Positions 59,445 to 61,825 of a stretch of DNA of 64,000 bases are shown piece after piece (within the stretch, counting starts at the first letter, position 1; the number at the start of each line of letters is the position of its first letter). The notes beneath the pieces were generated by a model, which saw only the letters and a program-made list of their open reading frames with translations, was not told the origin of the DNA and searched no databases. Origin of the DNA: Tissierellales bacterium (lineage in GTDB: Bacteria; Bacillota; Clostridia; Tissierellales; DATGTQ01); assembly GCA_035301805.1 (NCBI GenBank), contig DATGTQ010000079.1, positions 3,672-67,671 of the forward strand, in the 5' to 3' direction. Both the position numbers and the translations under genes were made by a program.

Positions 59445-60977
59445 CTATTTTGCATATTCTATTGCTCTTGTTTCTCTTATAACATTAATCTTAATTTGTC
59501 CAGGGTAATCTAGCTCCTGCTCAATTTTTTTTACGACTTCTCTTGCAATATGAGTAATGTAATCATCACTTATTTCATCAGGTTTTACCATTATTCTTAA
59601 TTCACGACCAGCTTGTATAGCATAAGATTTTTCTATTCCCTCAAAGGAACTGGCTATATCCTCAAGCTTTTCAAGCCTCTTTATATATGTTTCTAAGGTT
59701 TCCCTTCTTGCACCAGGTCTTGCAGCTGATATAGCATCTGCTGCTTGTACTAATACAGCCTCTACTGTTTGAGGCTCAACATCTCCATGATGAGCTGCTA
59801 TTGCATGAAGGACTTCTTTAGACTCTTTATACCTTTTTGCAAAATCTACACCAATAGTAACATGAGGACCTTCAATTTCGTGATCCACAGCCTTACCTAT
59901 ATCATGTAATAATCCCGCTCTCTTTGCAACCTTAATATCCACACCTAACTCTGCAGCCATAGTTCCTGCAAGATGGGCTACCTCTATGGAATGCCTTAAT
60001 ACATTTTGGCCGTAACTACTTCTGTACTTTAATCTTCCTAATAATTTCATTAGTTCAGGATGAAGATTGTGTACTCCCACATCAAAGGCAGCTTGTTCGC
60101 CTTCTTCTTTTATAATAACATCTACTTCTTTCTTGGCCTTTTCAACCATTTCTTCAATTCTAGCTGGATGGATTCTTCCATCTGCTATTAGTTTTTCCAA
60201 TGCAATTCTAGCAACTTCTCTTCTAATTGGATCAAAACCTGATAATACTACAGCTTCTGGAGTATCATCGATTATTAAATCTATTCCTGTTAATGTCTCT
60301 AATGTTCTAATATTCCTACCTTCTCTACCTATTATACGCCCTTTCATTTCATCATTAGGTAAAGGTACCACTGTTACCGTAGTATCAGCTACGTGATCAG
60401 CAGCACATTTTTGAATTGCACAAGAAATAATTTTCCTTGCCCGCTTTTCAGCTTCTTCTTTAGCCTTACTTTCATGTTCTTTTATCATAATGGCAGATTC
60501 ATGAACTATTTCTTTCTTAACATCATTTAATAGTGTTTCTTTTGCTTCATCAGTAGTGAGTCCTGACAACCTTTCTAACTCATCTACTTGTTTTTCATAA
60601 AGCTTACCAATTTCATGTTCCTTTTCTTCTAAACGCTTTGTTCTTTTAGTTAGAAGTTCTTCTTTTCTATCAAAGTTTTCACTTTTTCTATCAATAACTT
60701 CTTCCTTATTAACAAGCCGACGCTCTAATCTTTGAAGTTCAGTTCTTCTTTCTCTATTTTCTTTCTCTATTTCAGTTCTCATTTTATGAACTTCCTCCTT
60801 GGCTTCAAGGAGTAGTTCCTTCTTATGAGATTCACCATCCCTCTTAGCATCGTCAAGAATCTTTTCAGCTAATAATTCAGCATTACCAATTTTTCCTTCA
60901 CCAATGGTTTTCCTTATATAATATCCAATGACAATTCCTATTATAACACTTATAATAACAGCTATTAAAAGTTCAAT
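59445..60977 (-). CDS. rny: Ribonuclease Y, with N-terminal membrane anchor requiring a non-canonical start
   Basis: KH domain ([15 protein letters not shown]) and HD domain (LLHDIGKA). The track starts at ATG 60782, but the frame is open to 60995 and encodes [47 protein letters not shown], the conserved Rny TM and coiled coil. SD GGGAGG lies 9 nt before ATT 60977. Confidence 0.85.
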
Positions 60978-61056
60978 AACAAAGCACCTCCCTTTCTATT
61001 TAATTTTCAAGTTCCATTACACATTTTCAAATATAATTCAATCCAATAAAAATATA

Positions 61057-61075
61057 AACCGAGGTATCTCGGCCT
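61057..61075 (-). promoter_or_regulatory. Terminator-like hairpin in the rny leader
   Basis: The minus strand reads GGCCGAG-ATAC-CTCGGTT followed by TATATTTTTA. It lies between the promoter (61121-61149) and the rny SD. Confidence 0.4.
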
Positions 61076-61120
61076 ATAGTGATTTAACTATCTTGATTTG
61101 AACAGCCAGCATACGCTTTA

Positions 61121-61149
61121 ATTTTATTACTTTTAGTCAATTCTGTCAA
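61121..61149 (-). promoter_or_regulatory. rny promoter
   Basis: On the minus strand: TTGACA (61149-61144), 17-nt spacer, TAAAAT (61126-61121). Confidence 0.5.
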
Positions 61150-61156
61150 GTTTTTT

Positions 61157-61825
61157 TCACAAGTTAAAAGTCAACTTTTCTACAATACTCTCTGTTCCTT
61201 TTAACTCTACCTTATATGCATTTGTACCAATGGCTGATAGGTGATTATTGTGTGTTACCATAATAATTTGCCTATTAAACATTTCTGAAGTTTTCTTTAA
61301 AAAATTAGCAACATTAAAAATATATTCTTCACTTACATGTTTTGCTGGCTCATCTAATATTAAAGGACCTTCAATAAAAGGTCTATGAATTTGGAGAAAT
61401 GATATTCTTAAAGCTAAGGATACAATATCAACAACTCCCCCACCCCTAGACTCAGTAGGTTTAGTTTTAATTTCTTCTCCGTCAACATTGGTTATTACAT
61501 AGAATTCAGCGTTTTGTTTTTTATAAGCTTCGTTTATTTCGATTTTAAACTGAGTATTATTTTCAAAAATATACTCTAAACAATTAGTAACAAGATTTTC
61601 TACCTGAACTTTCGCTTGTTCACGAGCAAATTGGGAAGTTTTTTGTAGTAAAATATTAACCTGTTCTAGTAGTTCCTGTTGCTTTTCAATTGAAGCTATT
61701 TTTTCATTGTTTTCCTTAAGCTGTTCAATAATTTTTTCCCTTTTACCACTTTCTTTTGCATAATACTGTTTTAATAAATCTAAGTAACTTTTTAACTCAT
61801 CATATTCGGTCATGACATTTATCAC
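61157..61825 (-). CDS. Rad50/SbcC-like ATPase, C-terminal head fragment
   Basis: 222 aa. About 75 aa of coiled coil, then signature-like SRGGGVVDIVSLALRISF, Walker B/D-loop PLILDEPAKHV and H-loop MVTHN. The GTG start overlaps the upstream stop (GTGA). Confidence 0.7.
   Translation of the reverse strand: MINVMTEYDELKSYLDLLKQYYAKESGKREKIIEQLKENNEKIASIEKQQELLEQVNILLQKTSQFAREQAKVQVENLVTNCLEYIFENNTQFKIEINEAYKKQNAEFYVITNVDGEEIKTKPTESRGGGVVDIVSLALRISFLQIHRPFIEGPLILDEPAKHVSEEYIFNVANFLKKTSEMFNRQIIMVTHNNHLSAIGTNAYKVELKGTESIVEKLTFNL

Follow-up and report, generated by a model that had tools for sequence, protein, structure and literature searches.

The gene for RNase Y (rny), the main enzyme that initiates mRNA decay in Gram-positive bacteria, lies on the minus strand of the window, a 64,000-nt stretch of DNA from a Tissierellales bacterium, and the question raised by this locus is where its translation begins. 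The reading frame is closed by a TAG at 60998-60996; from 60995 it runs on without interruption as far as the stop at 59445. According to the open-reading-frame listing, the first in-frame ATG, GTG or TTG is the ATG at 60782-60780, which opens a frame of 445 aa (59445..60782). Upstream of this ATG are 71 open codons, none of them ATG, GTG or TTG, just as the original prediction had claimed for a stretch of about 70 codons, and the encoded peptide is the one given there. The same prediction had pointed to an in-frame ATT (60975..60977, minus strand), which sits 9 nt past the last G of a GGAGG (60987) and is conserved at a spacing of 8-9 nt in relatives, as the initiation codon (AUU). Read from this ATT, the rny coding sequence (59445..60977, minus strand) comprises 510 aa plus the stop, as defined by translation and by matches to TIGR03319 and Pfam. 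Judging from the letters of this and related genomes, rny very probably starts at ATT 60977, behind a strong Shine-Dalgarno (SD) sequence.

The SD ahead of the ATT reads GGGAGGTG and occupies 60992-60985 of the minus strand. The original prediction was right about the spacing of 9 nt to the ATT and one base off in its coordinates for the SD (60991-60986). This core is part of an extended SD, TAGAAAGGGAGGTG (60985..60998, minus strand), whose TAG is also the codon that closes the rny frame upstream. Because the assembly does not contain the 16S 3' end, the anti-SD was assumed; with a 16S 3' tail of the Bacillus type, TAGAAAGGGAGGTG could pair over 13 positions, with a predicted duplex energy of -17.5 kcal/mol.

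Comparison with protein families shows how much of RNase Y depends on the choice of start. The 510-aa protein read from the ATT scores 792 bits against the TIGR03319 equivalog (cut-off 454), with residues 5-510 aligned to positions 2-514 of the 514 in the profile. In Pfam, residues 4-195 match positions 3-201 of RNase_Y_N (PF12072), followed by KH_1 at 204-261 and HD at 326-418, and the LLHDIGK motif with its His-Asp pair is present. Both alignments thus begin at residues 4-5 of the ATT-started protein, in keeping with the earlier identification of the upstream peptide as the N-terminal helix and coiled coil of RNase Y. Residues 3-21 (60915..60971, minus strand) form a putative transmembrane helix with a mean Kyte-Doolittle hydropathy of 2.83 over 19 residues, and no comparable hydrophobic segment is found on the same scale after residue 66 (maximum 1.05). 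The protein therefore has a single N-terminal helix and an RNase_Y_N coiled-coil region, provided that translation starts at the ATT. The 445-aa product, which begins at position 64 of the 514 in TIGR03319, would be missing the anchor and the initial third of the N-terminal domain, and it was correctly foreseen that use of ATG 60782 would cost the enzyme its membrane tether. That a non-canonical start is the only one from which the membrane anchor can be made is strongly supported by comparison, these alignments included.

The ATG at 60782 (60780..60782, minus strand) is nonetheless the start that standard gene callers choose, and their 445-aa product without the anchor (P0055) could be taken at face value: rny would then encode a soluble RNase Y, and the open frame upstream would be a relic. 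An SD-like AAGGAGG (60794..60800, minus strand; -11.4 kcal/mol) does lie 11 nt before this ATG. However, its letters fall within the conserved codons K-E-E of an LLEAKEE segment, so that it is most simply read as a by-product of coding, and the 65 codons upstream of the ATG do not look like a relic, since they encode a conserved protein sequence and have accumulated many synonymous changes. Over codons 19-70, 19 synonymous changes and 6 non-synonymous ones separate the window from its nearest relative; against more distant relatives there are 12-21 synonymous differences, roughly equal in number to the non-synonymous ones. Such coding-type differences between the helix and ATG 60782 indicate that the stretch is translated. 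The Met at 60782 is itself poorly kept, being present in 10 of the 33 loci with an ATT, ATC or ATA start in which the motif could be found and replaced elsewhere by L, I, S, N, T or A. Moreover, the product from this ATG falls short of 63 of the 514 profile positions, helix included, whereas in every relative the helix is in frame behind a strong SD. Initiation at ATG 60782 as the true start of rny is thus very unlikely, though the SD-like AAGGAGG 11 nt upstream makes it conceivable that a minor anchorless isoform may arise there.

The case for the ATT rests heavily on its conservation. The rny genes compared came from 28 genomes that span about 20 families within the same Tissierellales-like order and are identified as Tissierellia by protein matches to Anaerosalibacter, Sporanaerobacter and Tissierella, and from 80 named Bacillota genomes. 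Among the 28 relatives in the order, the start position holds ATT in 23, ATC in 2, TTG in 2 and GTG-ATT in 1, in all cases 8-9 nt past an SD of the AGGAGGTG type. The comparison of start codons in orthologs for which the original prediction had called thus comes out in its favor, with ATT in 23 of 28 and no conserved Met at 60782, and the choice of ATT 60977 is supported both by the fixed spacing of the conserved ATT and by the coding-type evolution upstream of ATG 60782. Across the full set of 109 loci, 16 are free of in-frame canonical codons all the way from the upstream stop to the helix; six of the 16 are from metagenome-assembled genomes (MAGs) outside the order (L035-L039 and L098). Many of the remaining loci offer no "canonical" codon except the GTG contained within GGAGGTG.

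The letters around the ATT invite a further explanation. The ATT is overlapped by an out-of-frame TTG (as ATTG; 60974..60976, minus strand, spacing 10), which opens a frame of only three codons (MNF-stop). In the nearest relative of the window (L003, 87% identity) and in L033, a TTATTG hexamer lies in frame and its TTG is the sole candidate start, and from these alignments it seems that small indels switch lineages between ATT and TTG. The source genome is a draft of 282 contigs, and the nearest relative carries the same hexamer with TTA TTG in frame, so an indel introduced by sequencing or assembly might hide a canonical start such as TTG 60976. A hidden canonical start of this kind had been named from the outset as an observation that would overturn the ATT proposal. 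Yet the frame from TTG 60976 stops after three codons, and an identical error would be needed in more than 20 genomes. The window reads ATT GAA CTT TTA ATA GCT (I-E-L-L-I-A), and independent genomes, some of them single-contig, agree codon for codon with its ATT GAA CTT TTA reading; for example, L007 has ATT GAA CTT CTA and L009 has ATT GAA ATT TTA. A hidden canonical start is therefore scarcely credible. With ATT as the start of rny, the overlapping TTG may still matter as an intrinsically better start codon than ATT, and some initiation events at this site may be unproductive, given that the in-frame counterpart of this TTG is the start in L003 and L033. Frameshifting from the TTG decoy into the rny frame was considered as well and was rejected, since no conserved slippery site follows it and ATTG occurs at just 13 of 34 ATT sites.

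Some existing annotations already embody the ATT start. The Tissierellia RNase Y proteins P0003, P0015, P0010/P0013 and P0037 at NCBI begin exactly at the homologous ATT, and the start of P0003 (MDPIIKL...) corresponds to ATT GAC CCT ATT ATT AAA TTA in L032. Elsewhere gene callers truncate RNase Y or start it inside the SD, and products of 445, 490 and 494 aa are found in the public protein collection. Veillonella RNase Y (L078, L079 and L081; P0146, P0154, P0159 and P0165) is annotated from the GTG of GGAGGTG (MNIILEY...), a choice that would leave the GTG without an SD; in these genomes the ATT that lies in frame 8 nt after the GGAGG is the more plausible start. A literature search returned no paper describing an ATT start for rny. 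All told, the ATT layout of rny is real and conserved and joins the known AUU-started genes, implicit in some RefSeq annotations and apparently undescribed in the literature.

The distribution of start codons was placed on a tree of 109 RNase Y proteins built with FastTree. The clade that includes the window (32 rows, support 96) holds 27 ATT, ATC or ATA starts and 5 canonical ones, and because the latter are nested in four separate places, a near-cognate start is the parsimonious ancestral state of the clade. The start position in these rows is occupied by ATT 25 times, by ATC twice and never by ATA, compared with 49% ATT, 42% ATA and 9% ATC among Ile codons elsewhere in the first 165 or so codons; the nominal p for this bias is 2e-6, with the rows being related rather than independent. 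Starts of the ATT, ATC or ATA type are also found in Veillonella and other Negativicutes, in Syntrophomonas, Peptococcaceae and Eubacteriaceae, and in MAGs labelled as Thermoanaerobacteraceae. Canonical rny starts were found in the sampled Bacilli, Paenibacillus, Clostridium sensu stricto and Lachnospiraceae. Among the 95 loci that could be classified, 47 have near-cognate and 48 canonical starts, and the tree implies at least 15 changes of start state, 10 of which are required by branches with good support. With such repeated flips between ATT, ATC or ATA and canonical codons, sometimes by way of small indels that shift an overlapping TTG into the reading frame, rny offers a good natural system for the study of start-codon turnover.

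The SD varies little across this distribution. The spacing to the start is 8-9 nt in 44 of 46 loci with ATT, ATC or ATA. The idea that a stronger SD compensates for the weaker codon was rejected, as the mean SD length is 8.7 nt for these starts vs 8.3 nt for canonical ones (p 0.19). The equal length in both classes suggests instead that a strong SD is a trait of the rny family and not a specific compensation.

An independent view of the ATT comes from other genes of the same genome. Two copies of infC are present, both with an ATT start in the arrangement AGGAGGTG(C/T)-6 nt-ATT, that is, AGGAGGTG, a 7-nt spacer and ATT; they read AGGAGGTGC-TGG-ATT-ATT and AGGAGGTGT-CTT-AAT-ATT. Of 181 GGAGGTG sites genome-wide, rny and the two infC copies are the only ones with an ATT at 5-11 nt, a long open reading frame and no canonical alternative nearby, which argues that the layout at rny is more than chance. 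The infC copies lie on contigs of 4.4 kb (G000:C209:1960-2460) and 21.6 kb (G000:C29:19713-20213); they may be paralogues, or one of them may come from the estimated contamination of 4%. A relaxed scan of the genome for further ATT starts returned mostly non-coding frames and one possible glutamate-symporter gene. In this sodium/glutamate symporter gene (L114:301-1416; G000:C133:26987-28105), the Pfam alignment runs from residue 1 of the ATT-started frame, the ATT comes directly after an in-frame TAG behind a weak SD (GAGGT), and there is no canonical start for 25 codons, so it may be another non-canonical start. Another frame, L115:301-840 (G000:C188:76821-77363), covers no more of F420-0:gamma-glutamyl ligase than its C-terminal part (positions 95-218 of the 218 in the profile); a split or frameshifted gene seems likelier here than an ATT start.

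How might such a start work? The extended SD, GGGAGGUG, which may pair with as many as 13 nt of the 16S tail, would hold the 30S subunit so that the AUU, 9 nt downstream of the SD, is placed in the P site and read by initiator tRNA, and the product would be the full 510-aa membrane-anchored RNase Y. By analogy with known AUU starts, the weak codon would keep RNase Y synthesis low and make it respond inversely to the initiation factor IF3. The original prediction had gone further and read initiation at ATT as usually a sign of IF3-dependent autoregulation, and here the comparison with infC is instructive. In both genes a near-cognate start is conserved behind a good SD, and in this genome the two layouts are the same. 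That said, the infC genes of E. coli, B. subtilis and S. aureus, with their AUU or AUA starts, encode IF3, which itself rejects AUU and so closes an autoregulatory loop. The logic requires that IF3 be the product, and RNase Y is not known to take part in start-codon choice; by this comparison, IF3 sensitivity could be expected of rny and autoregulation could not, so that its expression would at most be low and IF3-sensitive.

Other AUU-started genes bear a closer or more distant resemblance to rny. In E. coli, AUU starts are found in infC and in pcnB, which encodes poly(A) polymerase I, an RNA-decay enzyme whose level is kept low by the inefficient AUU. Like rny of the window, pcnB is thus an RNA-decay gene with an AUU start, but the protein is unrelated and the host Gram-negative, whereas the rny start is conserved across an order and recurs in several Bacillota lineages. 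Within the Bacillota, S. aureus cvfC1 (AUU) and ccpN (AUA) have extended SDs, and their reporters reach about 10% of AUG (bioRxiv 10.1101/2025.06.19.660503; PMC13009471). They share with rny of the window an extended SD at fixed spacing and a conserved near-cognate start; the genes are different, and rny is not mentioned in that study (0 occurrences; bioRxiv 10.1101/2025.06.19.660503; PMC13009471).

The best-studied counterpart is rny of B. subtilis, where the start is AUG and the SD, at -17.5 kcal/mol, is among the strongest in the genome (PMC10303841). An ATG start is also found in Paenibacillus and the other sampled Bacilli, so that the same gene differs from that of the window in its start codon. 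In B. subtilis, the initiating ribosome blocks RNase J1 at -15, which ties the stability of the mRNA to initiation, and autoregulation is achieved through cleavage by RNase Y together with RNase J1 and not through IF3 (PMC10303841). An RNase J is present in the genome studied here. By analogy with the B. subtilis model, the combination of a strong SD and a weak codon could mean that a bound, slowly initiating ribosome shields the rny mRNA from RNase J without high output. The dose of RNase Y matters, and B. subtilis autoregulates the enzyme; a weak start joined to a very strong ribosome-binding site suggests a translational limit on RNase Y that is tied to initiation-factor status.

The rny leader has features of its own. 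A promoter-like TTGACA-17-TAAAAT (61121..61149, minus strand; 11 of 12 matches) is the probable rny promoter, and its -10 region, AAAAGTAATAAAAT, is conserved in relatives upstream of a hairpin. (On the plus strand, the rny start region carries an antisense promoter-like ATGACA-17-TATAAT at 60928-60956, which likewise has 11 of 12 matches and may be due to chance in AT-rich DNA.) The hairpin, TATAGGCCGAG-ATAC-CTCGGTTTATA followed by a U-run (61043..61078, minus strand), is terminator-like, lies inside the rny leader, and is undescribed for rny of B. subtilis. Of 100 loci, 24 carry an exact CCGAG-N3-10-CTCGG in the 250 nt that precede the rny SD, with Peptococcaceae, Syntrophomonas and Lucifera among them. 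The letters of the stem do not vary, and the 2.6-Mb genome has this form only once. A search of 60700-61400 against Rfam gave no match at E up to 1, the whole leader folds no better than shuffled sequence (z -0.48), and RNAalifold on 14 leaders returned only the invariant hairpin, without compensatory changes. In raw counts, the start is ATT, ATC or ATA in 21 of the 24 loci with the hairpin vs 26 of the 71 without it, an association that found no support in phylogenetically independent pairs and was set aside.

Directly 5' of the SD is a conserved leader motif, GGAACTTGAAAATTAAATAG (60996..61015, minus strand), which almost every genome of the order carries and which recurs as ATGAAAACTAAATAAGGAGGTG in Lachnospiraceae and Peptoniphilus. 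It places stop codons in all three frames and in most genomes contains a mini-ORF, M-K-x-K-stop. In the window this mini-ORF reads TTG AAA ATT AAA TAG and ends 4 nt before the SD, so the rny start might be reached by termination and re-initiation, either from the mini-ORF or from the overlapping TTG decoy, which would ease the demand on the start codon. The pattern NTGAAAA...TAG/TAA is conserved; M-K-x-K-stop is kept in most Tissierellales; Lachnospiraceae and Peptoniphilus have it with ATG, and one of the changes, ACT to ACC, is synonymous. The mini-ORF nevertheless has no SD of its own and its frame runs through the rny SD in 6 of 29 genomes, the Lachnospiraceae with the conserved motif use ATG for rny, and the decoy lacks the conserved slippery site mentioned above. 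Re-initiation is thus improbable.

A broader and more speculative picture would join these elements. In it, rny and infC would form a small conserved set with AUU and an extended SD, IF3 activity and ribosome availability would tune the synthesis of RNase Y and hence the capacity to initiate mRNA decay, and the SD-parked 30S subunit would shield the mRNA from RNase J at a low protein output; with the hairpin and the A-rich motif, this would amount to a multi-layer control module that is peculiar to many anaerobic Bacillota and that none of the literature searched describes. We regard this picture as doubtful when taken as a whole. Leaders of another kind are found in Paenibacillus and Cohnella (L057, L058, L059, L061, L065 and L068), where rny has an ATG start and a different conserved hairpin, CCCAAGG-loop-CCTTGG, lies about 12 nt upstream of the SD.
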